Positions 6,283-31,900 of a stretch of DNA of 35,869 nt are shown in pieces. Position 1 is the first letter of the stretch. Each line of letters begins with the position of its first letter. The notes under the pieces were generated by a model that saw nothing but the letters and a program-made list of their open reading frames with translations, did not search any database and was not told the origin of the DNA. A program made the position numbers and the translations under genes. The stretch comes from Trichoplax sp. H2 (taxonomy: Eukaryota), in contig NOWV01000083.1 of the NCBI GenBank assembly GCA_003344405.1, forward strand, positions 134,250 to 170,118, read 5' to 3'.

Positions 6283-7065
6283 CACTAAAAATTATTGGAA
6301 ATACAAAGTCAGTAATTTCGTTGGAAATAGTTCGATTCGCCATTGTGAATCTACTCTTCATCTTGACTACTCATTAAATTGGCCTTCGGCGTTTAGACCT
6401 TGACTGGTTAATCTAAATATTTTATTTGTATTATTATCAAACCTTAATGGAATTTATGTCACTGCTAGTACAGTACAGCATTAGAATGCTACTTTATTCC
6501 CTCAATTATTCTCTATACGTATATACATTTTAAAACGCCTTTTCGCCAATAGTCAGTATACTTTAAATGATGTAGCTAAATAAGATGATTTCTTTATTCT
6601 TCATTACATAGTAACGTAAGAAAAAGTGCGATCTCTATTAGAAGATAATGTGCTTTGCTTAATATATAATTAGCAGATACGAATCTATCATAATTATAAA
6701 AAGGACCTTTTGTAATAACCATGTAGAAGGTTTTATGATATATTTGATTTTAAAATATTTCTGATGTTAAAGCTTTCAATAGCAAATCTTATACCAATAA
6801 CCATCTGATTATGGTAATTGCATATCATTTACATTATGGCGTCAGTTAAAGCTAGTGATTGCACCCGGGGATACCTATCCGGGTTTTTTATCCGGCTAAA
6901 TGGAGCTAGTAGTATTTTTCACCTATCGCTGAGTATCAAAGATCAAATCTGCACGTACGAAGAAAATCTCTTACCATAAAAGTCTGTGTTTTACTATAAG
7001 AACAGTAGCCCTTAGTAACACAAACAAGTCTTAAAGTCTTATTTTATTGTTATCTTTACAACTAC

Positions 7066-7328
7066 GGTATACTGTACAGTACAGTACAGTATTCCGTTTC
7101 AAAGGCATACTGTACTGTACTGTGCAGTAAGTCGTTTTAATTTACAGTAGTTATAATCTTCCCGCAGCTATTATATATTCGTAATTATACTATGTTATGT
7201 TGATTAAAGTTCTTGTCTACTTAAAAATCTATAACCACTAATTTTAGTCGAATATTCAGTACAGTACAGTAGGCCAGGCCAACCCAGCTTGCAAAAACCT
7301 GGTACTACTGTACAGTACACTGTACAAT
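7066..7328. repeat. (GTACA)n/(TGTAC)n palindromic microsatellite, cluster 3 (two blocks, 7066-7130 and 7257-7328)
   Basis: ggtatactgtacagtacagtacagtattccgtttcaaaggcatactgtactgtactgtgcagta. The inverted halves flank a short spacer. Confidence 0.9.
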
Positions 7329-7630: not shown

Positions 7631-7924
7631 CCGGCCTGCAGTACAGTACAAGAGACCAAAGACCGCGCCTGCATCTACGGTACAGTACTGTACTGTACAG
7701 TACAGTAGGTTTTATTGTGCTAGGCCGCCTAGGCGTACTGTACAGTACTGTACAACTGTAGACGTGACTCCCAGGCTAGTGAAATTTTTGTACTGTAGCC
7801 CGTGACTGTACTGTACCGCACAGTAAAAAAAGGTGTCCACTGTTGTACTGTACTGTACAGTAGAATACGATACTACTGAAGTAGTGTACACTGTAGTGAC
7901 TGTACCATGTACTGTACAGTACAT
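7631..7924. repeat. (GTACA)n/(TGTAC)n palindromic microsatellite, cluster 4, the largest 5' of the Mondo gene, interleaved with GC-rich spacers
   Basis: cagtacagtacaag...ggtacagtactgtactgtacagtacagtagg...gcgtactgtacagtactgtacaactgtag...ttgtactgtactgtacagtag...catgtactgtacagtacat. It also contains the palindrome taggccgcctaggcg. Confidence 0.9.
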
Positions 7925-8092: not shown

Positions 8093-11000
8093 ATGGAACG
8101 AATGATTAATACAAATTTGCGACCAGTAAACTCTAATAATGGCAACTTATCTTCTGGCTACAATTTTGCACGTTTTGGACAAATGCCGAAGCAATACAAC
8201 TTTTTCAATCGCTATACTCTGTCCGATAAGGTTGCCGATGGTGATTCTTTAGCTCAATTACTCGACTGTTTGAGATTGGAATATAGGTATATTGTGATGT
8301 ATATATTCTAATCCAAATTATACCATTTCAAATACAGTATAAGGTATTAAAAAGATTTCAAGGACAACGCCTCAGTACATAATTTGCGGTACTGTACGTG
8401 TAGTAATAAGCAATTTTTGTATTTTAGACAGTACTGTATACTGTACGTATGTCCCGAAAACTTCAGCATGTTCAGTACTTACAAAGGGGCACAGTTTCAT
8501 AATTTACTGTACTGTATTCTATACCGTGGACCGACCGGTTAATTTATTCAGCTCGAAAAATTCATAGAAATATAACATCGACCAATTAATAATTTCCTAA
8601 TTTTTTAGTTAATTATTAAACCTACAACTCTTTTCATTTTAGTTATTATTTAGGCAAATTTGATGTCTGAACGCATTCACTAGAACTGTACAGTACAGTA
8701 CAGTGTACACTGCACAGTATAGCTGTATTTTAACCAGCACGCGAACTGTATCATACTGTGCTTCCTGCTGTACCGTATTGTACAGTACAGTGTTCACCTT
8801 ATGATCACGTATTCAATGCACTAGTTGGTTGCCATGTCATAAACTGCAAGTGTTTTCCTTATAGTTAAGTACAGTAATTGCCATACACTAAGTATTTCAA
8901 AATTATTAATACGCAATTTGCTGTCACAAAATGAATTACTAGCCTAAAATTGCAATGAATTATTATCATTAAAATATACGATGGCTTGTTTCTGACATTA
9001 GCCCCTTCTACAGTATATCGCAAATCCCCAGTTCTCCTATATTTAGTGATATTTAGACTAGTTAATGTAGACTGTACAATGTACAGTCTACATTCGTGGT
9101 ACATTAATTAAGTTAAGTTAACGTTGTCGTGTAGCACATTTATAAACACAAAATATTAACATATCATGAAATCTTTATTATGGACTATTATCGACTGGTT
9201 TGAAACCCCTTTTTTCTTATATTAGTGACACCTTGCTAACTCCGAGATGGAAGAACTTCAAAAGTCAAAATCTAAAATGGGAACAAAAACGGAGATTAAA
9301 CAACATCATTTGGAGAGCCTGGCACATGCAATGTAAGTTGTATTAAAGTTAACCCTCTGATGCTTACAACAGCGCAAAGTTCTTGCAATAATGCTCTTGT
9401 CTCATGCTATACAATTTTCAATAAATATTCAAAATTTTATGACTACATAATTACACTACGATTGTATCATAACCCGAGGTTATTTACTATTTATGCTGCA
9501 ATCGTTAGATAGATTTATTGCGCTATACTGCTTCATTTTCTACGCGTATTAGTCACTTTTGCCGTAACTTATCTTTATGTAAAATAATGTCGTTAGCAAT
9601 GTGTGAAATATCCAATGTACTATTAAGTTCCAAGTAGTATACGAAGTGGTAGATTCAAGACATGCCAACCGATAAAAGATAAAGAAGTACCTTATAGTAC
9701 TAAGCTGCCATATATGCTGCGCTTCGTGAATCGTATCCAACAGTTTATAAATATAATCAGAAGCTGCCAATGATCTTATTGATCTTTTGGATAATGTTCA
9801 TGAAGTTGTTGAACCTGTTTAATTGTAGAATCTTTAGTAAAATGCCACAATCTGTGCGGTATTACATAACCTTGATAACAGTTTTTATGTTGGGACGGAA
9901 GAGAAGAGCACAGTATACTATCAGAAACGTATCTATCGTTGCAGTTTTGATGTGCTACGTTCGACATTACGACTAACAAGGTCTTCCTATTTAACAGTTC
10001 AAAAGCATCGTAACTTGCCATTCTGTAAATTTGCCATCCCTTTCCTTGAAAATATGCATAATAAACCTCAGGTATTGACGTAATAAAAAGCTCTATATTT
10101 AAAGAATTAAAGTAAACCGTTGTACGGATAGCCATGACTACCAATCTATCCTAATTTTAATAATTGATCACTGTATTACATCAAGCAATGACAGGAGCGT
10201 ATCATAAATATTCTTAAATATTTTTCTACATGAAGGCAATCGTAGTAGAAGGTGAACATTGGCGTCGAAGGCTTGATGCCATTGCGTCAGAATATAAACG
10301 ATGGAGATGTTATTTTGGGCAGGTACTTGTATGATCTAGTCGCTAGATTACGAATCTTACCTCTAAAAATGAGATTTTTGTCTTTATTAGCTAATTGTAA
10401 TTTTTGATCTTTTCGAAATTTAGACTGTTACACCTCCTGAAACAGAGACACAAGTCATTCTGGGAAATGTCTGTTATATTTTGTCTACATCATCATATAA
10501 CGTTAAATCGATATCGTTTTATAGATTTTTACCTTATTGCTACGTTTTATGTGCTTATATAGGATGATGAATTATCGCAACAACTGAATGATGCATCCAA
10601 TAAATTGATCAAAGAGCAATTGATAGGGTTAGTCAACTAAGATATTATTTTGTAAGCAATAGGTCTTGAAGCTGCTTCATAATTTGAATACCCACGTTAT
10701 TGCTGAGAATAATCATTTCAGCATTTTCATTGATAATCTTAATTAGGCCAGGGAATGATAGCGAAATATTCCAAAATTCAGCAGATGGTAAGTGTCACAG
10801 TTGCAGATTAGAGGTAGTATAACAGCAGTAAGTTATCGTAACGGGTATTCACTGCTAGTTATTGTAATTTTTAGATTTTTTTTCGTATTGAGTTGTAAGT
10901 CGAGTACTGATTTCGAATCTTTCATTACAGTTTTCATGTTACCAGATACGCTCTTTTCCAGTCTAGCACCTGTAGACGACTTCAATTCTACCGACGAAAG

Positions 11001-13879
11001 ACTTATGGGTAAGAAAGTCTTCGGTAGTTATTATCATGAAGACGTAGCAAAAGAATAATAATAGATTACGTTGTTCTTTAATATAGATACAGCAGATTTA
11101 ATCCAACCAACCCTTGATCAATTGCAGCCGTCTGTTGCAGATTTATTGGCTACGATGGAAGATAACGGTGAGAGCATTATTTCGATATTAAAAAATGCAT
11201 GCTTTAACAATTGACTATTTAATGCGAATTGCAGTTAGCTAAATTTCTTTCCATGTAACCATGTCTTTACGACAAAAACAGATAACTACTTCTTAAAAAA
11301 ATTGGACGAAACTCCTCCGTTTTCCTTTACCGCTCAGCCTCAAGGTTTAGCAGCTACTCAAAATCTGACACAATCCCAAAAAAATAAAGCACCAATTTCA
11401 TATCATCCAATTGACGAGGAGCATTACAAGCATGTAGTGCCAGCAAATGTTGAAATTAATCAAAATGTTACAAACCATGGTCATCAAGAATTAGGGCTTA
11501 TGAATGTTAGTAACTATAACTGCTCTGCCATCGACGCTAATGCTACTGGATCATCCAACTCTATCCAGAATGTACCGCGTGCTGATAATGTTCATTTAGC
11601 TATGCATCAGAACCGCTTTAACCAGCAATCCTATCAATTACATAACATAAGTATGGAATCTACAACTACTTTTATTAAAACATCTAACAATCAGCTATCG
11701 GAATTAGAGAATCAGATACCCCAGGATTCCTTTCATGTATACCCAAACGTCGACAACAGGCAACGTCATCCAAACCTAGGAGCCGGAACTACCAATCATA
11801 ATAATCATCCACCTAAATTAAACAATATTTCAGAAATTCAAACGAGATTTAGACCTAGAGCTCCAGATCAATCTTCGAAATCTCCATCAACTCCTGCCCA
11901 TATTTTGTACAATCCTGTAAATAATCAGCAAGCAATGGTTTCTGAAGGCGCTGTTCCAGAATCTCCTGGCCGCGGATTTAGTAAAGAAAATCAGCCTATT
12001 CCCAGTCAATCAAGTTATACCTTTTGGAATGAACAAACTCAAGATTCTAGTGATAAATTTTTATCGCAACGGCCAGCCGCCGCCAGTCAGGAAAGAATTG
12101 CCGCCAACACCGCTACTGATAATTCTTTCCTAGCTCGATTGCTTACGAATTCAAATTTTACTCAAGAATCGAGACAATATCAACGTCATTCAATCGAGAG
12201 ACACTACGTAGCTAAGCCAGTACCAATTGCGCCTGCTCAAAATAAGGTACAGATGAACAATTCGCCTTCGTTGGGAAATTTACAGTATGACTGGAATCAG
12301 ACGCGAGAATCATCGAAAACCTTAGATAATGTAACTATATCTACTGAATGCTTTGCCATTTTTGGTTGTATTACACCCATAAGGCTTCATCACTTACTAA
12401 TTTACGATTTGCTCAATATTAAGAATGAATCTACGTCTTTGCCGGTTAGCCCTACTCATACTGGCTCCATAGCACACGGTAAGTAAGCAACGCTATAAAC
12501 TTAACTGTTCACCATCTTGCACCCATGTAATCTTTTATTATTGTCCCTTAGTTGTGGAGCCGACTGGATTCGCTAAGATTGAATCGCATAGTGGCTATAT
12601 GAATAGTATTCAGATGACCAGCAAAGCTAATATGAATACATCGTCGGAAAGCCAGACTAAGCCGTCAGTTACTAATGAGGTTGTTTAATTAAACCTTGAG
12701 TTTATAATAGCGAAAATGACAAGCTGCAGGATAAGAGTGTTGTTTTTAGACTATATGGGTAAAATCTTAGATAGTTATAAACATTTCTCATTTAGGAATA
12801 TCGAAGGAGATCGCATCAGTCTTCCGAGCAGAAACGCCGTGGCAATATTAAGGTTTTCGGCCTTTTTTATGATGAAATCACTAGCACAATATAAATCTCG
12901 ATGACGTAACTAATGATTACTATTAATTTATTAGCTAAGATTTGAGAAACTGCAGTCTCTAGTACCATCGTTAACTTCAGTGCACAATGCAAGAAACAGT
13001 AAAGCAACTATTCTTCAAAAATGTCAGTAAGATTAATTTATGAGTATTCTTAGATGAAATATGGCTAAGTAATGGTAACTCTAGTTTTTTTCTATTTTCT
13101 GTCACCTAAATTAGCAATTGATTATTGTAAAACCTTAACCCAAGAAAAACAAGCGATGCAAGCTGAAATTCAGAGACTTAAAAGTAGAATTTTAGAGTTA
13201 AATGAGGGTATTAAGTACGTAAAATTCTATGTTGTGATAACGTAATGTTTTAACGGAGATACTATTACTCATACCAATTTATATACGTTGCATGTATAGT
13301 AAATGTCATCAACAATTACCTGTGACTGGTGCTACTGTTACCCAGCAGCGAGCTGATCAATTACGGCAAAAATTTGACGAATACGTTAAAAAGAGGACTT
13401 TAAGCAATTATAAATTCTGGATTGTATCCTTTTCGCTTAGGATTATACATCTTTCGAGTGGCAATCCCTCAGAATTTACTTTCTTCTGTTTGTTTATATA
13501 TTTTATGTTTACTCTCAAATGTAATCTGTGATTCTTTAACGATATAAAACTGCTACAGTTTAGCATCATTATTAGGCCGTTGTTCGAGTCATATAGCAAC
13601 ACTGCTGTAACATCAAGCTATGATGAATTCTACCGAACAATGCAAGCATGGATGGATCAGCACTGCACTCTTGTTCAATTGAGACCAGGTATGATTGCAT
13701 GACCAGGTAATTGCTATCTGTTTAACATAAAGATTAATGCAAGAACTAATCTGTTTCCTTTCATTTCAGTTGTCATGGCCGCGCTTTGTCAGCTAAGTAC
13801 CGATACGGATATACTATCGAATCCATCATTAGTTCCTGTTCAGGCTGTAGAAGCTGCAAAAAAATTATTAGTTGAAAAT
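8093..13879 (+). CDS. Mondo-family bHLH-leucine-zipper transcription factor (MondoA/ChREBP/MLXIP homolog), complete gene, 16 coding exons
   Basis: Exons, GT-AG and phase-consistent: 8093-8287 (alternative in-frame ATG at 8051), 9226-9340, 9884-9929 (least certain), 10227-10320, 10563-10627, 10747-10787, 10931-11007, 11088-11167, 11345 or 11351-12478, 12552-12678, 12796-12851, 12935-13022, 13115-13214, 13290-13423, 13569-13688, 13770-13879 (TAA). The conserved blocks match the Mondo conserved regions. MCR I-like: SLAQLLDCLRLEY. MCR II: RWKNFKSQNLKWEQKRRLNNIIWRAWHMQ (cf. KWKNFKG...RLNNAIWRAWYIQ). MCR III: AIVVEGEHWRRRLDAIASEYKRWRCYF. MCR IV: FMLPDTLFSSL. MCR V: ADLIQPTLDQLQPSVADLL. Exon 9 is a long Q/N/S/P-rich central exon, the 394-aa ORF in the track. 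The basic region is SHQSSEQKRRGNIK, followed by the HLH (LRFEKLQSLVPSL...ATILQK), the zipper (IDYCKTLTQEKQAMQAEIQRLKSRILELNEGI) and a DCD/WMC-like C-terminus (KCHQQLPVTGATVTQQRADQLRQKFDEYVKKRTLSNYKFWIFSIIIRPLFESY...MQAWMDQHCTLVQLRP...ILSNPSLVPVQAVEAAKKLL). Confidence 0.9.
8390..8800. repeat. (GTACA)n/(TGTAC)n-related repeats scattered in Mondo intron 1
   Basis: Short copies at 8390-8446 and 8505-8520. A long block at 8685-8800: aactgtacagtacagtacagtgtacactgcacagtatagctg...gctgtaccgtattgtacagtacagtg. Confidence 0.8.
9064..9094. repeat. Perfect 14+14 hairpin palindrome in Mondo intron 1
   Basis: aatgtagactgtaca atg tacagtctacatt. Confidence 0.85.
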
Positions 13880-16800
13880 TAATCACAAAGTAAATTTAAA
13901 TTTAATTTGGGATTAATTTTTACGAGTAACTTGTATTCATATAGCTTTGCCACAACAGTCTAGACTATAATCTGGATGATTCAAACCGGTGTTCTAATTA
14001 ATTTAATATTATATATTCATGTAAATATCAATAACATCAATTGTGTGTTGCAGCTTTTAATTTTTTTAATTCTATCTCTTTTGTGTTAATTATTAAGATA
14101 CAAAAATTGATTTAATATAACTAGTGTACCAAATGGACAACAAGTAAAAGATTGTATATATAAAAATATATGTACTGTATATGTACTAGATAACTGGTAC
14201 ATATAAACGTTATAGTCAGTTACTTGCCGCTTAAAGTGGTTATTCGTATTTTTAATAACTAGAGTTAGTCGGTCAAGTCGCTATGCATGATAATATTCAC
14301 AAAGCGTTTACAATGAAATCGATAGTCGATATTTAAAAGTAACTTTCGAATTCAGTATGCATACGGTATTACACAATTGATATGCACGCATCCTCACCCT
14401 ACTATAGCATCGTGGCTGTATACGCGTATATATACGTATGCTGTATTTATGTTACAAGATTTACAATAAATTCTTTCTTTTATCGTTCGGCAAACGGTTG
14501 GGTCGCAATACTATATATAAAACATGCTTAACGTAGACAATAATTTAATATTATAATAGTACTGTGTGCATACTAATGTAAAGTTAACAATGTAGGATCG
14601 TACAATTGTATCTTCAGATTTCGAAATATAATTGAATACGTATAAGAGGAGGTATTTACTGTAGGCTTCAGCTAGAATGCCATGAAATCTGTCAAAGTTT
14701 TTTAGAACTTAAGGTTTTACATAATCTAATTGATTTTCAGTTATAACTTGCGGTTAATATATCGTTACTCTAGAACCTACTATAAATTTATATAATACCG
14801 TGATCATTCGTTTTTCTTTACACTTCACGAAAGCTTCATAAATTGTAATGCTTACCGCATCTATTAGAGAATTGTATCCGAGTTGTTTATTATAAACTCC
14901 GAAATTCTGTTATCTAAAATCCATCCGCTGCATGTTTGCATAGATACAATATGAAATTTATACTTGTAGTAGGCCAACGCGGTAAGGAAATAATTTTAGT
15001 ACAATTCTACATTTCCTTTCTTAATGTACGTATACTGTACATCAGAGTACTTTGCTACTAACATCACCAAATTGAAGTAAATTGCATAACTTAGACAACA
15101 TCGAAAGTAGCCTTTCTTAGGGCTTTGCTTCTAGATGGCTTCTCATCTTTTTTTTGGCGAAAGGAATTACCTGATATACACAATCATCTGAACAAGACTG
15201 ATTCTAGATGTAAGAATCTTGTGACATTATATGTAAAGTACAGTAGAATGAGTTGATAAGTGCGCAATACAAAGTACTGCACTCGGTAATTGCTGCATTA
15301 AGATGATATATGTTTGGGCCATCCCTTAAGATCTATCTAGATCTCTCCGATATTTATGCAAGATTGCAATAGAGACTATCCTAATTCTGAATTTCTTCCG
15401 CATCGTATTCGACAGTGATCGCATCTAATTCTCAATCTAGCGTACGACCACGCATGCTACATATCTATCCAATCTACGGAAGCTGATATCTTATTTGAAC
15501 ACGGTCTCGAATAGTTTAATAATCACATACAATTATATATATTATTAATGTATAAATTGATTTGAATGCACAATGGGGATGAGATAAATCTATTAGTGGT
15601 ATTTTGTAATTGTTAGAAATAATAATTTAATTAGAGCAAGATAATTTAACTGCTTGCCCGATTGTTGGGGCGATCAGCACAATGCGTATATAGAACTGAT
15701 TGCTTTTGTTGATATATTGTGGTAGTTGCCGAATCGGTTATAAAGAAGGTTCATCCGTAAATCAGTGATTTATCTAGCTTATGTTACTAAGTCAGCCAGT
15801 ACCTAATAATTTAATGAAATTCTTTGTTTTGTAAGAAAAGTGTAATAACTTTGTCAGTACACATTTGATAAAGATTTACTTCGAATATTTAGAAGCAAGC
15901 ACCATGATATTTAGGATAGTTTAATCATTGAAGAAATTTTATAATCGGAATCTATCGTTGCCCGCTAAATAATTAGGCGTCTGGATATATAAATTGATTG
16001 TTAAAATAGATGAAAAGGGTCTAAGGCCTGTCCCTTTAGTAGCCTTTAGCACTAAGCGTCAATGCTTGCATTGTACATTGTACAATAACTTTCAGCAGTT
16101 TTGTTGCTCACTGTCAATTGATTAAAACTATTAAAATGATACTGTTTTTAGTACAATAAAATTAACCTCATGTTATTAGATGCTAAAGTTGAACTGTCAT
16201 ATCGGTACTCAATATAAAAACTCAATCCATAAATTAATAAACTTACAATTAAGGTAATAGATATTGATACAGTGTAGTACATAATATAAAATTAAAGTAC
16301 AGTACTGTAAGGGTATATCAGCTGCAGTTATCCCATGCAGCATGTATAAAATGCACAAATAAGTACGAAATCTTCAGTAAGGATATTGCTGATAGAGTCA
16401 ACTTCTTTTAATAAGGTTAGCTGGCATATTTAACGTAAGTTCGCCAAAAAATATGCTGAGTATACTATATATAGACAGATAGATATGCGTATCGATACAC
16501 TAATACTGTACAAATCATTCACATCCACATCTTAAATAACAATCATAATCAACCACACATTAAAAACCAGAGCCCGAACTAGCAGTCGTAATTGCATAAA
16601 GGATCAGACTACTTGTTATATTCGGTTGTTTACGAAATTTTAAGTCGTAAGTATAGCATTCGCATGTATTTGTAGTCTTTTATGAATAGCTATTTATACT
16701 TATATCTCGCGATCGATACGTAATATTCGCGTCTTGTAATTCTTCCAAAACATGTTGAGGCAATCGTCCTGTGACAGATATTGCGTAACATCCTCTCGTG

Positions 16801-17063
16801 AAAGAATCTACGAATTAATATAGCATTTAAGAACCATTTTGCGCAAAAGCAAAACCGCGTATGTTGTTAGAGACTTCAATACGTTATAATCTATACTGTA
16901 CGGTATATACTGTACCCAAAAACTGTATTAGATCTAGTTTAAACCACTAATAAACGCAAAATTGAATTTTTGACATAGAGCTAACATATTCTCATGGTAT
17001 AATAGTTACACAAACGAATTGCTCTTATAGATACTATCTAAAGATCAACAAGTCATTACTAAC

Positions 17064-18546
17064 CTATTCCTTGCCACCTTGCTACCCAGCTATTTTTTGG
17101 ATCAGTCAGTGAAATCATTCTACGAAAAAGGACAAAGTAAGAATATTTATGTGTATGGGCAACAGTAGCATCTACCTCATAATCCTTTTACTGAATAATC
17201 TATGATTAATTATACACAATTAATTAAAGCCTTAATCAACATAGGGCAATAACAATAAATTTACTATTGAATTCGTATATCGAATATTGATATTCTAATA
17301 TTTTCATGGCTTGTTTCATAGCAAAAAAAAGCGTATTATACTTGCAATACTACGTAGCTACTCATCTACAAGATGAGAGCATTAACGTCTTCTACTGCAT
17401 ACTGTACTGCAGATAACAATTTGCAACGGTTCCGCACAAACTCTAATCCTAGTATAGTTACAGTAAGCTACAAGGGTAGTAAATATCTCTTAGTACGCAA
17501 TACTAAGTTTTTGAGATGAAACATCCAAAAATTTAGCAAGCTTATGTAAATAAGCTTTGTACGGCTGAACATTGATAAAACATTTCCATTGATCACGACG
17601 TTAAGAGCCACTTAAAGGATCAAAAAGTAAACATTTATGATAAATATAGAGGTAAAGAAGCGAATTAATGACATTTCCCATCGTATGTACCTTGTCTAGT
17701 ACCAGAATAAAGAAGACGTGCAAATTATGATCGTAATCGCATTAACTGCTATCACATTGCTTAATCTTTCTAGCGTCGTCTTGCAAGACTATAGCACGCT
17801 TGATAAGTGTTTTACTCTAGACGACAGCACTTACTCAGGCATAACACCAACCAACACTGTACATACGCCTATACAGTTTTATCCGTTTACTTTAATTATG
17901 CTGTTCATACGTACACGTATATGATCTTAACAAAAAAATCTTACTGACTTACCCACTAAAGTTTGGACTTGTGCATTCGTAAACACTCTGTCTATCCCCT
18001 TTGAGATGCAGGTACTTATCACAGTTTTCACATCCATCCAACTCAAATTGATCTATGGTCTGATAATTTTACGTATTCATTATAATACAACAAAAAGTTA
18101 AAATAGGCGAAAAGTAATAAAGCTACATGAAAAGAAGTACAGTGTTAGTCCAAGATATGCGTACGTATTGCAAAAGATATTAAGGTAGAAATCTAGGTAT
18201 GAAGTAATAGAACTTGATAATCCTATAGTGCGCGTATTACAAAATTGAGCTGATATTATCATTTTAAATCACAGTATGCTGTTATTGTAAGTCTATTTAT
18301 ATATATATATATACTGTAGTAGTGATGGATCTATCAACAAATTTAAATAATTTCAATACTTGAAATGCTGCTCTTAGTCTCTCACTAACATACGAATACA
18401 TCCATGGCCAACTAGAAAGTCAGGATGAAAGAAGCACGTACAGTATTATTGTACACTTGCCTTCACGAGAGAGCAAACCAAACAAGCCCTTAGATTACGA
18501 ACTTCTCTAGGAACACCATCCATTTGTTCTCGAGCATCTTTTAGTT
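17064..18546 (-). CDS. SPT4: Transcription elongation factor SPT4 (DSIF small subunit) homolog; 5' three exons resolved, 3' terminal exon not resolved
   Basis: Read on the minus strand. Exon 1, 18546-18461: [32 protein letters not shown] (cf. LRACLLCSLVK, the first zinc-ribbon Cys pair). Exon 2, 18059-17952: [36 protein letters not shown] (cf. [39 protein letters not shown]). Exon 3, 17119-17064: (G)[18 protein letters not shown] (cf. IIAMMSPEDSWVSKWQRV). The exon-1 donor is gtgaag|GCAAGT, a GC-AG intron. The C-terminal ~35 codons downstream of 17064 could not be placed unambiguously. Confidence 0.75.
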
Positions 18547-18965
18547 GTTCGTCCATTGATAGGCGTAAAACTTTGAAAAATTTTGGCTAATAAAATTTGA
18601 AAGGTACAGCAGCAGATAAAAAGAAGCTCGGTTTAGTAGCAGCAATATCTGTAAAGTGAGTTAAATCAAATCTTTATAGTAGGGTCTCTACTGTACAGTA
18701 CAGTACACCGTACAATACAGTACAGGACTTTAATATAGTAAATGGTGACACTGTACAGTACTGTACTGTACAGTACTGTATACGGGTACAGTACGTACCG
18801 TACAGTACAGTACGGGTACTGTACTGTATGTCCAGTACAGTACTATACACTGTACACGGTATGCTCAGTACTGTAGGACACTGAAGACAGTAGCACAGCG
18901 GCAGCAGTGCTACTGCCATCACAACTTGCAAGCACAAAAGGAGATTAGAAGACGAAATTACAAAA
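18547..18965. promoter_or_regulatory. Putative bidirectional promoter shared by SPT4 (minus) and the L10K-like gene (plus); almost wholly occupied by a GTACA/TGTAC palindromic microsatellite
   Basis: The two start codons, 18546 on the minus strand and 18966 on the plus strand, lie about 420 bp apart and point away from each other. The 18690-18890 interval between them is almost pure (GTACA)n/(TGTAC)n. Confidence 0.5.
18690..18890. repeat. (GTACA)n/(TGTAC)n palindromic microsatellite, cluster 5, filling the SPT4/L10K divergent promoter
   Basis: ctactgtacagtacagtacaccgtacaatacagtacagg...cactgtacagtactgtactgtacagtactgtatacgggtacagtacgtaccgtacagtacagtacgggtactgtactgtatgtccagtacagtactatacactgtacacgg. 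Confidence 0.9.
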
Positions 18966-19919
18966 ATGCCACAAGGTCCTGTTAGGAAATTATCCAAAGC
19001 GAATAATAGTAAAAAAGTCAAAAGATTAACTAAAACATCGATAAAAAGTGAGTTCTATCTAATCACAATTTGACGCTCTACTGCTTTCATTTTTTGACAG
19101 TGCTGTATAGTAAATGCAAGGAGTAGTTTTACTATGGACTGAGGCGTATACCTGTATCTTTATGCCTATTTCACTCCGTATTTATTGATCATGGCTGTTT
19201 TTAGGGAATGCAAAGCAGCCTAGGAAGGGTACGAAAGTAACTGGTGCTGACAAATTAAGGAAGGTATATGAATTGAAAAATTGGGAGATAATATTCCTGA
19301 ATGAAGCTAGAAATCAATTAATTCTTAAAATTTCTGCATGATCAGTAAAGCTCGTATCCTTAATATGATACACGTCCTACATTATTGGATGCTTATTCAA
19401 CAAATGTACATTACTGCAACAAGCTAATAATATAGTTATTGGGATGACTTGATAAGATTATTCCAATACTGCAAACTTGCCAATAATATGGCATAAAACT
19501 TGATACACTGCAACTGGATGCAGTTGTAATGTAGGAATACGCGTATTTTATAGTAGTAACAACTGTAAGTGAGAACAGGTGATGCAGAATTTCTATACTG
19601 AAATTCTCTACTCAGTCCATTACAGTATATCAATTTATGTAAGAGATCAAATAAATTTAGTGTAATATATCGGATCCGAATACCAATTTACAAATACAGT
19701 ACTTATTCACTTATTCATTAAAATCAACTTACGTGTATCCTTCTAACTGCGTATGATCTTGCATTTCCATCAACACAGACTTTGCAGAAAAACATTAACA
19801 AAAGTATAGAGGAAGACGTTAGACAACGAGCTTCAAAGTATGAAGTCAAACCTTTCTATATCATCCGTAACGATACCACCACGAAGGAAACATTAAAAAA
19901 GAAACCCGAAAGTAAATGA
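18966..19919 (+). CDS. Small lysine-rich protein, probable Leydig-cell-tumor 10 kDa protein / UPF0390 (C19orf53) family homolog
   Basis: Three phase-consistent exons: 18966-19047, 19204-19263, 19779-19919 (TGA). Translation: MPQGPVRKLSKANNSKKVKRLTKTSIK / RNAKQPRKGTKVTGADKLRK / TLQKNINKSIEEDVRQRASKYEVKPFYIIRNDTTTKETLKKKPESK. The N-terminus (M-x-QG), the central PRKG block and the KL.K.L...I.K.IE.DV block parallel human L10K (MAQGQRKFQ...GPRKGGRVIAPKK...QKLKKNLEVGIRKKIEHDV). Family membership is from memory only. Confidence 0.65.
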
Positions 19920-23009: not shown

Positions 23010-23440
23010 CGTACATACTGTACAGTACAGTATGTACTAGCATACTGTACTGTACTGTACAGTACATTACAGCGTAAACATGGCTGAAACAACACCTTAT
23101 TTTCTGTTTACGGTACTGAATAAGGTGGTGATCCTTACTACTGTACTGTACTGTACACTGTACACTGTACAGTACAGTACTGTAAAAGAAAATTACTGCC
23201 TGTACTGTACTGTACAGTACTGTAGTCTACAATACTGTACAGTACAGTACTACATGGTTACAGTACTGTATACTGTAGAGGTTTTTTTCTTACCTCTAGG
23301 CTAGCCCATAATGCAGTACAGTACTGTACACACTACACTGTGTACAGTACTGTACTGTACAGTAGAGTACAGTACTGTACACTAATTTTGAATACTGTAC
23401 AGTACATTACACTGAGTTTAGTACTGTAGAGCGAATGCGC
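23010..23440. repeat. (GTACA)n/(TGTAC)n palindromic microsatellite, cluster 6, ending about 240 bp 5' of the Tudor-PHD gene ATG
   Basis: Three dense blocks at 23010-23070, 23140-23280 and 23312-23440, e.g. ctgtactgtactgtacactgtacactgtacagtacagtactgtaaaag...tgtactgtactgtacagtactgtag...atactgtacagtacagtactacatgg. Confidence 0.9.
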
Positions 23441-23678: not shown

Positions 23679-26600
23679 TATGAACCTCAACAAGAAATTT
23701 CCACATGCTATCAATGATGTTATTATCGTCAAATGCCAGAACAATTACTATTATGCGAAAATAAAAAGCATCGACAAACGACGTCGCAAGTGTAAGGTCT
23801 TATTTGATGACAAGTCTACAGATGATCTACCCTTTAGTGATATCTACAGCGGTAAGTTCTTCATTTAACTGCAATATTGCCTCATATTATATGTGCTCAC
23901 TCACTTCATCGCCGACTCCAAATAATTTGTTATAAAAGTTACCACTAAATCCAATGTTCTCAGAAATTGTGTCTCTTTTTACTCGAGAATATTTTGCAGC
24001 GTCGCATGTAGAAAGTACCTTAGCACTGTATTACATTTCAAATTGAGATTATTTTCTATTAATGGTGGATCATTATAAAGCATCTCTTGAATGGTGTGAT
24101 ATTGCTCTACTGTACTATTATGTGCAATATTTTCAATGTAATTCCATCGATTGGTGACATACAGTATTACTTTACGTTAGCAGTGAGTGGATACCAATAA
24201 TTACAGTACTGTACAGCTGCAAGTCTAGTCTTTACTCTCTATTGTCTTTGTCATTTCTATCAGTATCTTTCGAGTTTACAATATATAATTAGACATACGC
24301 ATTCTGTAATACCGTTAGTATCTCATTTTCCTTTTCTACTGTATGCTTTTCAACATGTAATGAATACCGAATAAGTGTGTATAATACTGGTAGAGTAACA
24401 GTAAATATAGGATATGTCGTTTTTACCAATGTTCATGAAACTACTTCGAATCAGACAATTAGACATTTATTTTATTTAATTTTACTATACAGATTGTGAG
24501 TACATAAAACCACCTTTGTAAAAAAGAGTGTCGTACGGTACTGCACGGCTCCATACTGATACTGTACAATCTTTTACAGTACTTCAGTGGGCATGCTGCA
24601 CAGTGCACAGGTATACTGTATACTGTACTGTACGTTCAGTACAGTACAGGTCATCGATAGCCTTTGTGCTCGCATTGATTCAAAGAGAAAGAGTTGTTCA
24701 GTACTGTACACACCGTACGTACTGTACACACCGTACGTACTGTACGGTACTATACGGTTTTGTTCCGTAGATGTGTGGCTGTATTATAAGAGTAGATGCG
24801 TTATATGCATTACCTAGTATAACTACAGCCTTTAGCCTTGAGTGCAGCACATCTTTTTTGTCTTTGCACTATTGCTTGCTAAACAATAGACGTAAAATGC
24901 AGCGTGCTTGTAGACTTGGCTAATTTTATTTCTTTATTTATTAAAAAGTAAAAAAAGTATATACCATATATAATATATACCTGAAATTATTCTATGAAGT
25001 TGAAGATCTTAAAAGCGCTTGTTTGCTATCACATTACTCAGCTTGGAAGAACTGCCAAGTTGATAACTTACAGTAGTGTAGAAAATACAGTACAGTACTG
25101 TACTGTATATTAATTGTGCAAAGTGTACAGTACAGTACACCATACAGTACAGTACTGTGCACTGTACAGTACAGTATTCCTTCTCGGTTACTTCTGGACG
25201 ACCGTCTACAGTACATTTTATTGATATACTGTATTTTGGATTTTACTGTAACGTAAAGCTAGCTCATAGTGATAGTGTGAATTGTATCTGTTCCAGTATC
25301 AATCAGCACCGCTTAATAACAAACTAACGTTAGTATCAGTAATAAAATAACGCATCACACACATCAACTTCTTTATCCTTGACTGCCGGAGTTGTGAGCT
25401 TGCGAGTGACTGATTCCATCATCCATTGTACTATTAGGAATAAATATTACTATTAACTGAATGCGATGTACAGTATTACAATGAATCCACTTAGCATCGG
25501 TGTTCATTCATTAAAGCTAGAATTTTTAGAAGGGCAATTAACTCCAATTTTTGCCGTTACTTCTATAAATTTTTAATGTTGGGGCTGTTGTTGTTCGGAT
25601 TTTCTATTTACTCAAGTTGGCGATACCACTACGGAAATCGTCTGCATCGTTTGTAAGAGTGGCTCTTCTGAATCACCTAACGAGATTGTCTTATGTGATC
25701 GATGCAGTATTGGTAAGTAATAATGATTAATTAAAATTTTAGTGCTATATTCTATTGAAGTCTTCATGCATGCAGCGTAAAAGAGTTTGAAATCATTACA
25801 TGTTTAAACGTTTAATAAACAAGAAAGTATCAATTAATCCTATGGCAATCAATTTTAGCCTATTACAACGTCAATGTAAAAGTATTTACTGTTAGTGTAG
25901 TCAAAAATTTCATTAATCTTAATTAATTAAGTAACAGTACTGGTGCTGATGGGAATACGTACATGCGCGTATATTATGGTATCGCATTATAAAATTATAC
26001 TGCATGATATCTTTTATAAGTTCTAGCGTAAGGTGGTATCAGAATTAGTACAGTACATTAGTTAGTTACCTGTTGCATACAGGTAATAATTTTTTTATTT
26101 ACCATCAATACGTAAAGTCGTAGACTTTGTTCTAATAAATAAAATCTAATAGATAAAAACATTAATTTAAATTTTTAAATACAGTATAGCTGAGTGATTG
26201 AGTTGTAGTGGATGATATGTCACAGATGACATTACGACAATTTGGTCATTTTTTCTATTTAGGATATCATCAACAGTGCCATTCACCACAGATACCAGAA
26301 TCGGTTTTGAAGCCGGACGTTCCGTGGTTATGCCATTATTGTCAGTCGAGTGAAATTTGCCCATATTTTGTAAAAAATCCTTTTACTGACGATAAAGGAG
26401 GAAATTTTAATAATAAGGTAACGTACCATATATGCATCGATATTATATTCAATAATTAACCTCAAGATAACGCACATTACTGTAGGTAAATTAAAATTAC
26501 AGTATAAGTACAAAATTATCCTATATTTCACTTATAATTAGCGAGCGACGGGATTTATATGATATTTTTGTAACAATCAGAAAAAGCCAATAGATAAAAA

Positions 26601-28450
26601 GCTACGAAAGAATCCATTTCCAGATCCTGCTTTAACCTCACCTAAAGATGTTGTGATTGACCCGAAGAAAAGCGCTACTAAGAATACAAGAGTGTCCATA
26701 CGAAAAACCATTAGTAAACGGAAGCGTAAGTGTATATAAAAATTGTCTACTTGCTGCGTATGTATTTAAGGGCATATTGGTTACCGTACAGTATACAACT
26801 ATATATAATAGTTAACGTTGTATAAATGCACCGTATTAAATCAGGACTTCTTCGGAAATATAGTTCTTATCAATTTTTCTAAATTGTCTTTATTCGATTG
26901 GCAAACTCTGTATAGGAGATCTAGACACTGATGAATCTGAACAAGAGACTGCTGAAAATGAAGACGAAGAGGAAGATGGAGATGTTGATTATCAAGATAC
27001 ATTCCGAAAGAGAAGGCGAGCTGCAGTAGTAGCCAGGAAACGTGTCCAAAAATACATGAAGGAAACTGGAGTCGCTAGCGATACTGATACTGAGAATGCA
27101 AATACCAGCAAGAAAAACAACGATGCCGATTTTAATATAAATTCTGTCAATACACACGGTAGTGTAGGGATAGGACTATTAACCGAGAATAGGATTTCAA
27201 GTAGTTTTCCTATGGCATCATCTGGCGGTTTTGGAACTTCTCCAAATCTTAGCTTAAATAATAACTATAGTATGAGCGGAGTACGAATTCAGTCTCCTGT
27301 TATGATGCCTCAAATGAATAGCATGATAAGCGATCATGCCATACATAATAATCCGAATCAAATATTTAATATGGCTAATGGCCTTATGAAATCGCCTCCT
27401 GTTCATTCACCAACTTTAGGAACTTTAACCTCACCCATGGGTAATGATATGCAGACATCACCTACCTTTGTTAATGAAAGCTTTCAGTCATGCAGTAATG
27501 TAAACCAACCATCGTACTATCAGCCTCAGCCGCAAGCGATTAACAATATAGATTATCAATCACAGCCTTTATCTGGTTACAATTCATCTGCCCAAAATTT
27601 TACAAATCCATCGCATATGCAACTATCACCTCAGATGACCCCACAGTACCCAAATCCTTCACACGTTTATTCTCAACATCATTCTCATCACGTGCCTTCA
27701 ATGATTCATAGTCAAGACCCTCATTATCAACATTTTCCTAACTTTCACAATATGCCATCACAAGAAGTAGCTCCGTATGGTGTCTCTCAGTATAATCAGT
27801 ACCATTGGTTAGGTCATCCACAGCAGCCCCAGACAATACAGCACATGCCATCATCTCAGTATGCGGTGTCACCGATACAATCCGTAAGCGGCAGTCTTGG
27901 TATGACTGGACCTGCCAATCAGCAGTTCTCTATAGGACAGCCTGAACAGGCACCATCACAAAAATTGTCACATAGTACTGACCACCAATTATCAACGAAT
28001 AACCTACCTAATGTTACAAATTTTAATGCAAGCAATTCTTTTGCAATTTGCAATGAAACAAAAGATAACATAGATAAATTGAACACTAAGGAAGTACTGT
28101 CAATATCAACTGAAGCCAGTATTTTAGATGTTGCCACCAAGACGCCGACTATACGAGGTCAAAGTAAGAAATCAGATACTGATAGTAGTATTGAAAAGGA
28201 AACAGTTACCAAGGTTACTACAGGAGAACAGTTTGAAACAGCCGAAAATTTAAAACCTCAAGTTAAAGCATATGATATCCCAAAAAATAAACAGAATGAT
28301 AACCATAACTCAGTTGAATTTCACCATCTACAAGAATCAAATTCAGTGAGATATAGAGAAGAACGCGATAAAGATGTATCACACTTAAATACCGAAATAT
28401 TTCAGAAGCAGACATCTGGGAACTTATCTAACGCTACTGAAGGTATTTAA
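23679..28450 (+). CDS. Chromatin-reader protein: Polycomb-like-type Tudor domain + PHD finger + long Q/N/S/P-rich disordered region (core of gene)
   Basis: Exons: 23679-23851, 25608-25708, 26263-26416, 26581-26720, 26916-28450 (TAA) or to a possible donor at 28443. Exon 1, NDVIIVKCQNNYYYAKIKSIDKRRRKCKVLFDDKSTDDLPFSDIYSG, follows the PHF1/MTF2/PHF19 Tudor pattern (DVLARWSDGLFYLGTIKK...C.V.FEDDS...LWKDI). Exons 2-3 encode a C4HC3 PHD finger, CIVCKSGSSESPNEIVLCDRCSIGYHQQCHSPQIP..(n)..WLCHYC, comparable to PCL PHD1 (CCVCRSE...CEKCRHAYHQDCHVP...WVCRQC). Exon 4 is basic (KKPIDKKLRKN...RKTISKRKR). Exon 5 has an acidic start (DTDESEQETAENEDEEEDGD) followed by a ~460-aa low-complexity Q/N/S/P/H-rich region. 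All junction phases agree. Confidence 0.8.
24535..24760. repeat. (GTACA)n/(TGTAC)n palindromic microsatellite plus an 18-mer tandem duplication, in intron 1 of the Tudor-PHD gene
   Basis: ggtatactgtatactgtactgtacgttcagtacagtacagg at 24610-24650. At 24700-24760, gtactgtacacaccgtacgt occurs twice in tandem, followed by actgtacggtactatacgg. Confidence 0.85.
25086..25186. repeat. (GTACA)n/(TGTAC)n palindromic microsatellite, in intron 1 of the Tudor-PHD gene
   Basis: atacagtacagtactgtactgtatattaattgtgcaaagtgtacagtacagtacaccatacagtacagtactgtgcactgtacagtacagtattcc. Confidence 0.9.
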
Positions 28451-28573
28451 ATGGGAGTATTTTTATTGTATTTCTGATGTAGTTTTCACTGGATAATTTA
28501 CACTTATATGGTTTTGGTGTTTAGCAAAATCCATTAAGAATTTCTTTTTCTAAATTGGATTATAATCTTAAAG

Positions 28574-30183
28574 GTAATAGAAACTCTGTCATTAAGGAAT
28601 CATCGGACAACCCTATTAGCAATCCGAATCAGACTGACAAAACGTCGGTAAGAAATCTTGCGTTGATAAATTATTCGGCTTCGAACATTAGAACACAACC
28701 TGGCCTTCCGATATGGCATTGATATCTTAGCTTATTAAAACTACCTATAATTTATTCATCTGTGTTTGTGAATAAACTTACTAGCTTCGTTAATTAAGAT
28801 GCATTTAAGACTCGTAAACATAAATAAATTTTTGCAGTTCTATTGCTGTAATATGATTTCTTAGTTCATAGAAAATAGAAGGATTCTTCATCTACATAAA
28901 GACCTTTCATCATAAAATCTAAACTAGACTGATCAAAGCTGATAAAGTATCCTTTTTACATCTCATGTAATTGCAGATTAATCTGGAAGAAAATCAAATA
29001 TGTCCGAAAACCAAAGTGAAGAAAGATGGGAAAGACGATTCATTTAAGTCCGATGATGGCATTAGTAAGAACGAAAAATCTAAAAACGAAAGCAATGCCG
29101 ATGAAATTAAATCTAAAATAGAAGCGGACGCTTCCTCTAAAAGAAATAAAATGAACGACACAGCAAATTCTAGTGATAAGTCAGCAACAAATGAACCTAA
29201 TCAACAAATTTGTGATTCCACGAAAGATTCTAAAGATGGCTTAAAGCATGCCAAAGAACAGCGAAACCTGGAAGAAGTAGATAATAAGTCAAACAATTAC
29301 GATAAGGATATTCATAGAGGTAATAGCAGAAAATTTTTATAAAGCTTATAAGATGTATGGTATAATACTTGTAAAAGGTGTAGATATACACGTAGATGTT
29401 ATACGTTGGTAGATACGAAATAATAACCTATTATACTAGTACTATCAATACTTAATTTAAAAATCTGGCAAAGTGAAATTCAGAAGGAGTAGGTAGTGCG
29501 GCCTTAATATATGAAAATACGGATAGTACGTATTATTTTTTGAAATATCTGATAGGTGTAAGACATACTGTAAATATGGTTAGTGTGGTACATTAATAAC
29601 AGGTCGTATATTGACAGATCCTGAAACTAATGCTCGTGGTGCATTGGATAACATAAAGTCTACTCCTTGTAGTGGTGACACTGTACGACCCCTTAATGTA
29701 GATGTAGAGCCCCATCGTATGTGTGATAATTGTAATCAACCCGCCTTCTTTCTCTGTTCCGGCTGTAAAACCACATGGTATTGCAGTCAACGGTGCCAGG
29801 CGAGTAAATTCAATAATTCTTTCGCAAATCATCTAGCCTAAGCGCAAGTTAAATTCTTGAATCTATTGTATGTTAGCGCACATGTGTAATTAACTTTACG
29901 TACGCATCAGCATTTCTCTACTACCTGGTAATGCTTTATAGTAGCTATAATAATGCTTATGAGGTAATATTATGCCTTCTTTTAGCATAAAATACATGAA
30001 GTAAAAATATCTTATTTTTCCGATCATATTTCTACGTTTTTCGTAATTACTAAGATTCAGTCTATAAATATCTATTACAATAGTCTTACAGTCGATTTCC
30101 TGATAGATTCTTTTTATATTATTTTAGGAGAAAGCATGGAATGACCATCACTTAAAATGTAAGAGAATACCGTGGCATTTGAC
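28574..30183 (+). CDS. Probable C-terminal exons of the same gene: S/N-rich exon, K/D/S-rich exon and a MYND-type zinc finger split over two exons
   Basis: Exons: 28574-28637 (GNRNSVIKESSDNPISNPNQTDKTS), 28977-29330 (the K/D/S/N-rich 123-aa ORF), 29603-29803 (...HRMCDNCNQPAFFLCSGCKTTWYCSQRCQA), 30131-30183 (KAWNDHHLKCKRIPWHLT*). The last two together read C-x2-C-x7-C-x2-C-x3-WYCS-x2-CQ-x3-W-x2-H-x3-C, a canonical zf-MYND. If the large exon uses donor gaa g|GTATTT at 28443 instead of its TAA, all four downstream junction phases are consistent. Chance agreement of four phases is about 1%. Linkage to the Tudor-PHD gene is inferred, not proven; it could be a separate downstream gene. Confidence 0.55.
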
Positions 30184-31809
30184 ATAGTTCATATGTTCTC
30201 CATATCGACATGGTTAAACAATAATTGCGAACCTCTGAAATATATTCGTTGGCTTCGATAGAAATAATGTATTTCCTTATTATACTGTATTTATTTTAAG
30301 TGTTAAGCTGTATTATTATTATTTATATTACAGTACGGCTAAAACGTCGGTGCTTCACCTTGTAATAAATAAATTGTGGCACTCGTAGAAGTAATGTAAT
30401 ACCACAAATGAATGTAAGAATTTTTTATTACAGTCAGCTACTTCTAGTTATGACTAAGACAACTGTATCGTAACTTGATTAACTACGGCTATAATCTCAT
30501 TTATATTCTGTTACCAGTCCTCTAGAACGGTTTAAAGATAATGATTCTTGAATCGATCTATTGACAGCAATTTCTTATATATTGGCGATTGTTATTGTTA
30601 GTTGCGATTACAATCTGCACCAATGCGTATATAATGTAAATGTATTGTAATCCCTTGGTATACGTCATTGTTTTATGGGACGGGACTCTCTTAGATATAT
30701 TCTTCGCAGTTAATAATATAAGTGGAATATCCACTTACACGTATGATGTTGGGGTTAACATTTTAAAAGTATACTGTTAACAGGACTTGAGAATTAGAAT
30801 ATGATCATTTGGACACGAGTAATATCCAAACTATTCAGTACTAACATGGTCGTTATTTATTCTTGATCAAATCAAATGGCCGCTCTTTGACAAATGATTA
30901 CATCACTGATTTTTTACATTTTATGCATTTTCACTGGTAACTATGAATATAGGGTCTATAAATTTCTTCCGTATCTCATATAAAATTTCGTACATTTTTT
31001 CTTTTAATTTGCACAGAACTACGGAAGTACTCTGCAACGAATAGCTGTTGATTTATACTGTACTGTACGTATTATCATTTAGTATATTCGCTTAATTAAT
31101 AACAGTTAAAAGTTATTATAGTTAATGATATTATTAGCTTGTAAATGTATATGATGCCAGATAGCTCAGTTACTGACAATCATTAATTTTAATTATTGAC
31201 CCGTACCTAGAATTACTTTTGAAATCGTATAATTCCTTTAAATCTGTTCAGTTTATTATACTGTAACTGATGTGATTACTTCGAATATTAACACTAAGTT
31301 GTGTTTGGTCTAAGATAATGCCGATGTCTTATTACTATCCAGACCAATTATGTTCATAAATAAATGAATAATTTATAAGTATGGCTTACAGACAGTAGTT
31401 ATTTTATATTATATACGAGAAAATAACGATTACAATTGAATGTATCATTGACATTAATACAAACATTCGTCTAATAAATAATACGGTAACTACATGTTAA
31501 ATGATATGTAATCGTTCACGTTGGCTGTGATATTGAAAACCTAGGTTCGATTTTGTAGTAATTAAAAACTTAAAAACATTTTCTAACAAGACGATCCACT
31601 CTATAGTAATACTAGTATACAGTATAGAGTAGGTCATGTGTAAAATTTATCAATCGGTGCACTGCTAGTAGAAATGTAGTACCGTTGATAATGCCATCCT
31701 ATCCTCGTCGCCTTATTAACTACTAGTTACTGTAGATCCCTCACTCGTGTACTCCTGAGCTTGAGCACGAAACTACGAGTACCGTTATATTCGTTGTTAC
31801 CAGGTATCT

Positions 31810-31900
31810 TGTACAGTACGTTCTGTACAGTATACTGTACTGTACTGTAACTGTAAGAACTAAAAAGGACTGTACCGTACAGTACAGTCCTGTACGTACT
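31810..31900. repeat. (GTACA)n/(TGTAC)n palindromic microsatellite, cluster 7, about 100 bp 5' of a candidate ATG-containing first exon at 32008-32040
   Basis: cttgtacagtacgttctgtacagtatactgtactgtactgtaactgtaag...ggactgtaccgtacagtacagtcctgtacgtactac. Confidence 0.85.

Follow-up and report, generated by a model that had tools for sequence, protein, structure and literature searches.

In the placozoan Trichoplax sp. H2, the gene for SPT4 and a small gene for an L10K-like protein diverge from a short shared interval that holds an array of GTAC-centred pentamers, hereafter the SPT4/L10K island. We analysed this array within a stretch of 35,869 nucleotides (assembly GCA_003344405.1, contig NOWV01000083.1, positions 134,250–170,118 of the forward strand), which we call the window and number from its first letter. 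The island is one local copy of a genome-wide placozoan class of (ACAGT)n arrays, and it differs in length from its counterpart in a second Trichoplax assembly, in which both of its flanks are identical. In our preferred reading, to which we assign a probability of roughly 0.55, the island is an upstream, non-transcribed platform for protein binding or open chromatin, set between two core promoters that lie in the unique flanks. The locus comprises the following features:

18455–18556, minus strand: SPT4 coding exon 1 (ATG 18556–18554, GT donor at 18454)
18557–18692, minus strand: unique SPT4-side flank, 136 bp, presumed core promoter and 5' untranslated region (UTR)
18693–18871, unstranded: GTACW/(ACAGT)n island between SPT4 and the L10K-like gene, 22 GTAC sites, with degenerate edges to ~18686–18876
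18728–18750, unstranded: unique 23-bp spacer, ACTTTAATATAGTAAATGGTGAC, with a short block of the island to its left and a longer one to its right
18754–18780, unstranded: best perfect palindrome of the array, TACAGTACTGTAC A GTACAGTACTGTA, its two 13-nt arms set around a single spacer base
18872–18965, plus strand: unique L10K-side flank, 94 bp, presumed core promoter and 5' UTR
18966–19047, plus strand: L10K-like (DUF2462) coding exon 1 (ATG 18966)
19205–19263, plus strand: L10K-like exon 2 of the three-exon model
19779–19919, plus strand: L10K-like exon 3 of the same model, including the stop codon

A divergent SPT4/L10K-like gene pair flanks the island

Both gene models reproduce annotated H2 proteins exactly. 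The whole SPT4 coding sequence runs over four exons on the minus strand (16680–18556). Its product, translated with the annotated GT donor, has 130 amino acids; it equals Trichoplax sp. H2 RDD41125.1 in every residue and scores 106 bits against the Pfam Spt4 family. Its identity to Trichoplax proteins is 98–100%: a protein search returned Trichoplax adhaerens TRIADDRAFT_28457 (DS985249.1:2,364,605–2,366,448) as the sole close match, with the next best at 64% identity. The three-exon L10K-like model encodes 93 amino acids that are 100% identical, over the full length, to TrispH2_005938, and it matches PF09495/DUF2462 (34 bits), the family of the Leydig-cell-tumour 10-kDa protein. The two genes lie on opposite strands and diverge from an interval of less than 1 kb (18557–18965 from ATG to ATG), a bidirectional arrangement. 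An earlier reading of this DNA, made from the letters alone (the original prediction), had proposed such a head-to-head pair with a repeat between its members, and both gene models bear it out, down to the L10K-like ATG at 18966 on the plus strand; exon 1 of that gene ends at 19047. Two of its figures need correction: the SPT4 ATG lies at 18556, 10 bp from the predicted 18546, and the interval measures 409 bp instead of 420 bp.

Several details of the two models are worth recording. At the SPT4 exon 1/intron 1 junction (18455–18460) two donors are possible: the annotated GT donor (AGT/GTACAA) adds 'AS' after LVK, and a GC donor six bases upstream (AAG/GCAAGT) gives LVK/TIDQF and a gapless alignment with other animal SPT4 proteins. 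The 2008 Joint Genome Institute (JGI) model starts at the second Met (119 amino acids), the H2 model at 18556 (130 amino acids), and intron 1 contains a short (TA)n run at 18303–18316. The L10K-like gene is present in the H2 annotation and received no call in the 2008 T. adhaerens annotation (Grell locus 9590–9670, about window 18966–19919); it looks like a small gene missed in that reference annotation.

The island is a degenerate pentamer array

The repeat unit is the palindromic tetramer GTAC plus one base, which equals (ACAGT)n read on either strand. Measured by its GTAC sites the island is 179 bp long, or about 190 bp with its degenerate edges, which amounts to 44–47% of the interval; its distances to the start codons are 137 bp for SPT4 and 95 bp for the L10K-like gene. 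Its content (18693–18871) comprises 11 GTACWGTAC 9-mers, 18 ACAGT/ACTGT and 5 ACGG/CCGT, and 12 pairs of GTAC neighbours stand at exactly 5 bp. Tandem Repeats Finder (TRF) describes 18689–18843 as a period-5 repeat of 29.6 copies with 69% matches and 15% indels. The longest run that keeps its 5-bp phase unbroken consists of five GTACs over 24 bp (18753–18776), and the island lacks the long run of a single unit that would mark a pure microsatellite, its units being of mixed orientation. The pentamer repeat that the original prediction saw in the shared interval is present, but its 'about 200 bp of pure' repeat is not, as the TRF match and indel rates show; nor is the interval 'almost entirely' repeat, the island being a degenerate patchwork over about 45% of the 409 bp.

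An open reading frame (ORF) of 115 amino acids that crosses the array on the minus strand (18674–19021) was rejected as a gene, its 'VQYSTV...' peptides being a translation of the repeat. ORFs of about 100 amino acids through GTAC islands (this one, 414–722 on the plus strand and 1655–1948 on the plus strand) give 'VQYSTV/LYCTV' peptide repeats and could be mis-called as genes by naive ORF finders. Neither Rfam nor ARAGORN returned a non-coding RNA or tRNA match anywhere in the window, the interval included.

The island belongs to a published class of upstream arrays

The 9-mer GTACWGTAC (GTACAGTAC and its complement) occurs 94 times in the window against an expectation of 0.38, a count that none of 100 shuffles came near, and 11 of these sites lie in the SPT4/L10K interval. 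Only the ACTGTAC family stands out among strongly enriched k-mers. Window-wide, 98 pairs of GTACs stand at exactly 5 bp; these carry A (55), T (39), C (2) or G (2) as the fifth base, and neighbouring spacer bases combine at random (AA 10, TT 8, AT 8, TA 7). Twelve islands with at least five GTAC sites occupy 6.5% of the sequence and hold half of all GTAC sites, and every one of them lies in 5' intergenic DNA, a first intron or unannotated sequence, with none in a gene body. For the density of GTACWGTAC we counted as gene bodies the MVP, Mondo-like, SPT4, L10K and Tudor/PHD/MYND genes, ordinary introns included:

SPT4/L10K interval: 26.9 per kb
Other 5' intergenic regions: 6.6–10.6 per kb
Two presumed first introns: 4.7–5.2 per kb
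Gene bodies (~15.7 kb): 0

An island lies 95–596 bp upstream at all six of the start codons that were placed, compared with a probability of 0.176 for a random position and strand; three of the six, those of the left-end, Mondo-like and Tudor/PHD/MYND genes, were placed by ORFs read by eye and weak Pfam matches. The sister islands, all unstranded, are distributed as follows:

533–761 and 974–999: two islands between MVP and a left-end minus-strand gene (ATG ~154), two genes that diverge
1802–1870: one island, 596 bp upstream of the MVP ATG (2466)
7074–7120, 7259–7325 and 7641–7922: three islands upstream of the Mondo-like gene (ATG ~8093)
8375–8512: one island, presumably within intron 1 of the Mondo-like gene
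23011–23424: one island, the largest of the sisters with its 37 GTAC sites, at a distance of 256 bp upstream from the Tudor/PHD/MYND ATG (23680)
24500–24750 and 25090–25214: two islands in the first intron, or an alternative promoter, of the Tudor/PHD/MYND gene
31749–31899: one island in a region without an assigned gene

The SPT4/L10K interval had been put forward as a clean natural test case; it is not a special one in a 36-kb window with 12 comparable islands, placed upstream of MVP, the Mondo-like gene, the Tudor/PHD/MYND gene and others.

The class itself has been described genome-wide. Wang et al. (2010, Biol Direct 5:18; PMC2871265) identified ACAGT as the dominant microsatellite of T. 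adhaerens, with 5,624 perfect arrays that make up 78% of pentanucleotide repeats, 54% of them at most 1 kb and 85% at most 5 kb upstream of a gene. Enrichment was seen at genes for translation and protein modification, only 14 arrays were present in expressed sequence tags (ESTs), and a role as transcription-factor binding sites was proposed (PMC2871265). The SPT4/L10K island fits this class as a set of tandem ACAGT pentamers in a placozoan host, less than 1 kb upstream of a gene, and it shares with the arrays of Wang et al. (PMC2871265) the organism group, the pentamer, the upstream position, the housekeeping type of gene and the proposed part as a transcription-factor binding site. Their survey covered perfect repeats longer than 12 bp across the genome and did not describe this locus, whereas the island is degenerate and holds units in both orientations. 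Searched for in the literature, the 9-mer itself gave nothing but miR-101 and primer matches, of which we dismissed the miR-101 match as coincidence. The SPT4/L10K island is one more instance of a class described since 2010. With the repeat, its abundance and its upstream position published in that year, and a link to chromatin boundaries and promoter hubs in 2025–2026, the locus alone adds little beyond a tidy example with a natural length variant.

Arrays turn over quickly in fixed positions

GTAC arrays gain and lose units quickly. The corresponding locus of the Grell assembly (GCA_000150275.1, DS985249.1) aligns to window 6636–28575 with 98.4% identity and 57 gaps, and the window is Trichoplax DNA about 1.6% diverged from this 2008 assembly. 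Within the SPT4/L10K interval every difference between the two is an indel in the array (+1, −10 and −29 bp), and both unique flanks and both first exons are identical. The SPT4/L10K island is the most variable of the islands, with 22 GTAC sites in the window and 13 in the Grell assembly, and its array is polymorphic in length by whole units. Indels fall into islands in 42 of 57 cases, although islands make up 7.6% of the aligned sequence, and all eight shared islands are present at the same places in both assemblies. The Grell allele of the SPT4/L10K island may hold no perfect run above 12 bp, so it may be missing from the list of Wang et al. (PMC2871265).

This turnover raises the possibility that the arrays are a neutral by-product, either slippage-prone sequence or the decayed terminal inverted repeats (TIRs) of Mutator-type elements, which favours open promoter chromatin, does no harm and marks promoters without serving them. 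The concentration of indels in the islands, the nine-site difference in the SPT4/L10K island, the random orientation of units and the shortness of their degenerate runs would all fit such an origin. On the other hand, the eight shared islands have all been kept in place, arrays are absent from the ~15.7 kb of gene bodies, where neutral microsatellites in ordinary introns should survive, and pure slippage should give a uniform orientation, yet the units are mixed. We regard a neutral origin, the main rival of the platform, as unlikely, and return to its transposon variant below.

The unique flanks probably contain the core promoters

The flanks are where we place the core promoters and 5' UTRs, the array then lying upstream of both, because the flanks are invariant, ESTs are nearly free of arrays, an ATG within the array would create an upstream ORF (uORF), and a TATAAAG motif stands next to the array on the SPT4 side. 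This TATAAAG lies on the minus strand at 18678–18672, just outside the array, and is weak evidence, the motif being common in AT-rich DNA here. The ATG, at 18825, is followed by an in-frame stop and would be a uORF for the L10K-like gene if the array were transcribed. The L10K-side flank also contains an imperfect 18-nt hairpin (18882–18899 / 18904–18921). Nothing shows that the core promoter is made largely of repeat, as originally predicted: the flanks stay constant while the array varies by 38 bp. What survives of the predicted promoter element is a plausible promoter-related role, in agreement with the concentration of ACAGT arrays less than 1 kb upstream of genes (PMC2871265); core-promoter status does not.

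If one or both transcription start sites (TSSs) instead lay beyond or inside the array, the transcribed repeat could form a structured 5' UTR that regulates translation or stability. Its strong predicted self-pairing would suit such a role, and the TSS positions used here are deduced rather than mapped. Transcription of the array is nevertheless hard to reconcile with 14 ACAGT arrays in ESTs against 5,624 in the genome (PMC2871265), it would burden the L10K-like gene with the uORF formed by the ATG at 18825 and its in-frame stop, and it does not agree with a TATAAAG on the SPT4 strand immediately outside the array. We consider a transcribed array very improbable.

Self-complementarity follows from the GTAC core

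The repeat had also been described as cruciform-capable. The single-stranded DNA fold of 18680–18885 has an energy of −47.9 kcal/mol, compared with −33.4 ± 3.4 kcal/mol for shuffles (z = −4.2), and the island contains 35 inverted-repeat pairs, including perfect 18-nt arms 51 nt apart. Longer arms are 79–88% complementary or enclose loops of 21–56 nt. Palindromic potential is present but modest, and a cruciform would depend on short, imperfect arms. Because the GTAC core is palindromic and the units are of mixed orientation, self-complementarity arises in any case and need not be selected.

These measurements bear on a structural alternative, in which mixed GTACA/GTACT units extrude hairpins or a cruciform under the negative supercoiling driven by transcription, and thereby hold the bidirectional promoter free of nucleosomes or recruit structure-specific proteins. 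The fold energy relative to shuffles and the inverted-repeat pairs, with the 13-nt-arm palindrome and the 18-nt arms among them, are what such an element would be expected to show. Against it, arms that are short, imperfect or long-looped disfavour extrusion, neighbouring A/T orientations are random and not arranged in long dyads, and the self-complementarity comes automatically with the palindromic core. Moreover, the Grell allele lacks 10 bp of the best palindrome and a further 29 bp of array, and the locus is otherwise intact. A cruciform role for the island is a weakly supported possibility, and we think the structural alternative quite improbable.

A proposed binding or open-chromatin platform between two promoters

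In the platform reading that we prefer, closely packed GTAC-core sites would be bound multivalently by a placozoan factor, or would disfavour nucleosomes; with 5 bp between them, successive sites would point to roughly opposite sides of the helix. Either the bound factor or the exclusion of nucleosomes would hold the shared region open and allow divergent transcription of both housekeeping genes, and the island could in addition have a share in the insulation at boundaries and the hub formation that have been described for promoters of Trichoplax. The copy number of such an array would be loosely constrained, its presence mattering and its exact length and sequence not.

Several points weigh against the platform. 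Fast gain and loss of units and random orientation are equally expected of a neutral, slippage-prone sequence, and a difference of about 40% in GTAC number between lineages, without evident consequence, argues against a dosage-sensitive function. Only six gene starts were placed, three of them by eye, and the promoter position, accessibility and hub membership of SPT4/L10K are all inferred. We know of no factor that binds GTAC arrays. Finally, the published motif of Trichoplax promoter hubs has been equated by the authors of the Chimaera model (PMC12817080) with ACGG rather than ACAGT.

Kim et al. (2025, Nature; PMC12221973) described accessible promoter hubs that take in about one third of genes, most of them housekeeping, and whose loop anchors carry a motif resembling Mutator TIRs. 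By type, SPT4 and the L10K-like gene correspond to the genes assigned to the GP1 class of that study, and its accessible housekeeping promoters with a recurrent, placozoan-specific motif resemble the setting of the island (PMC12221973). Chimaera, a convolutional neural network (CNN) applied to T. adhaerens Micro-C data, attributes its predicted patterns to 'repeating motifs ACGG and ACAGT' and predicts insulation at gene starts (NAR 2026; PMC12817080); its authors trace ACGG back to the transposon motif that Kim et al. described and that had previously been linked with insulation. The ACAGT motif of Chimaera has the same repeat unit as the island, comes from the same genome and is tied to gene starts and boundaries, as a model-derived association and not an experiment (PMC12817080). 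Placozoan regulatory elements in general lie mostly at promoters and in first introns (Najle et al., 2023; PMC10580291).

If the motif of Kim et al. is the 'repeating ACGG', the island carries 5 ACGG/CCGT where about 0.6 are expected, as single sites and not as repeats, and consists mainly of ACAGT; no Mutator TIR, target-site duplication (TSD) or element body is recognisable in it. Over all islands, ACGG/CCGT is enriched 3.3-fold and TACGG 5.7-fold. It may be that the published 'repeating ACGG' motif belongs to the GTAC pentamer family too, as its variant with a G/C spacer.

Two related observations concern this variant. TACGGTA(C), which is GTAC with G/C as its fifth base, is about 5-fold enriched at island edges, and TACGGTA/TACCGTA has 20 sites window-wide, 9 of them within 30 bp of an island. 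A mini-cluster in SPT4 intron 3 (CTATACTGTACGGTATATACTGTACCC, 16891–16927) combines two GTAC sites with a TACGGTA motif; it is the only GTAC-rich spot within a gene body here and is complementary to part of the SPT4/L10K island.

The ACGG and TACGG enrichments would suit the transposon variant of the neutral by-product, as would the targeted Mutator integration into promoters of highly expressed genes that Kim et al. raise (PMC12221973) and a 41-nt inverted-repeat pair with 85% complementarity at 544–584 / 970–1010. Opposed to this are the lack of a TSD, a transposon body or high-identity copies, with island–island matches of 70–80%, in either orientation, that involve repeat units only, and the scarcity of transposable elements, which make up 0.13% of the genome and include only six MuDR fragments (Wang et al., 2010; PMC2871265). 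That in-silico insertion of the CNN-found motifs alters the contact maps predicted by Chimaera (PMC12817080) also speaks against arrays without function.

A transposon origin of the SPT4/L10K island in particular was not confirmed, and no TSD was found at its edges. Self-BLAST and inverted-repeat scans found no Mutator element (TIR pair, TSD and shared body) and gave repeat-unit similarity only, at 70–88%. No other structure in the window resembles transposon TIRs as closely as the pair at 544–584 / 970–1010, whose arms lie 385 bp apart; the outer ends of this pair (TATACCATA... / ...TATACGGTATA) reach beyond simple GTAC units, and a TSD is not visible.

A more specific form of the platform, which we advance tentatively and think rather unlikely, would make GTAC arrays the recognition platform of a placozoan-specific architectural or pioneer protein, perhaps a domesticated transposase, that binds the palindromic GTAC sites on alternating faces of the helix, clears nucleosomes and glues housekeeping promoters into three-dimensional hubs. 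Were it true, lineages would adjust the strength of a promoter or hub through rapid changes in copy number, such as that between 22 and 13 sites. For asking which factor reads the arrays, and whether promoter openness or hub formation results from them, the SPT4/L10K interval offers a small and convenient case, with two short housekeeping genes, 409 bp, a single island, alleles of 22 and 13 sites and identical flanks, and is no better suited than thousands of other loci.

Comparison with other promoter repeats and bidirectional promoters

Promoter microsatellites that exclude nucleosomes or bind factors are familiar from other organisms, among them GAGA/(GA)n with GAF in Drosophila and poly(dA:dT) and (TG)n in yeast. 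The Trichoplax arrays resemble these tracts as simple, length-polymorphic sequence upstream of a TSS at constitutive or bidirectional promoters; unlike them, they have a 5-bp unit with a palindromic GTAC core and, among the loci compared, are confined to placozoans. In vertebrates, bidirectional promoters of the classical kind are CpG islands. The SPT4/L10K interval likewise separates two divergent housekeeping genes, whose start codons are 409 bp apart, but has an ordinary CpG content.

Two cnidarian SPT4 loci provide an outgroup. SPT4 is head to head with eEFSec in Nematostella and with an SNF2 helicase in Orbicella, and GTACWGTAC has zero sites at both loci. Given these other partners and the lack of the 9-mer, we take both the SPT4/L10K pairing and the repeat to be lineage-specific. 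Conserved SPT4–L10K microsynteny was rejected, cnidarian SPT4 having other head-to-head partners. At the Nematostella vectensis SPT4 locus (from OW051988.1, locus positions 5897–6001), about 100 bp separate the calls for SPT4 and eEFSec, the selenocysteine elongation factor.

Other genes and features of the window

Pfam searches of the concatenated six-frame ORFs confirmed MVP and MYND and nothing else, and a homology search with one concatenated ORF query of 4,921 amino acids gave no match at E <= 1e-5. The MVP gene (2466–6300, plus strand) looks complete, with Pfam Vault repeats and a shoulder domain, and its ~3.8 kb, introns included, contain zero GTACWGTAC. A probable Mondo/MLX-interacting-protein-like gene (8093–14500, plus strand) was identified by eye, with only weak bZIP/HALZ matches in Pfam; its exons include one with '...KWEQKRRLNNIIWRAWHMQ' (9170–9343), a long low-complexity exon (11302–12486) and a leucine-zipper-like exon (13069–13242), and the 2008 annotation calls just a 169-amino-acid fragment there.

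The Tudor/PHD/MYND gene (23680–29838, plus strand) has a Tudor-like exon 1, a PHD finger (26202–26456), a long Q/P/S-rich exon (27056–28450) and a C-terminal MYND finger (29584–29838), and the islands in its first intron (24500–25214) could mark an alternative promoter. To the right of it (29839–35869) no gene was assigned; candidate features are a minus-strand ORF at 35253–35564 with an acidic product ('MEGSDEDDEELEAISLQ...') and the island at 31749–31899, for which no downstream gene was identified. This unannotated right part of the window also contains a 21-bp sequence repeated three times in tandem (33654–33716).

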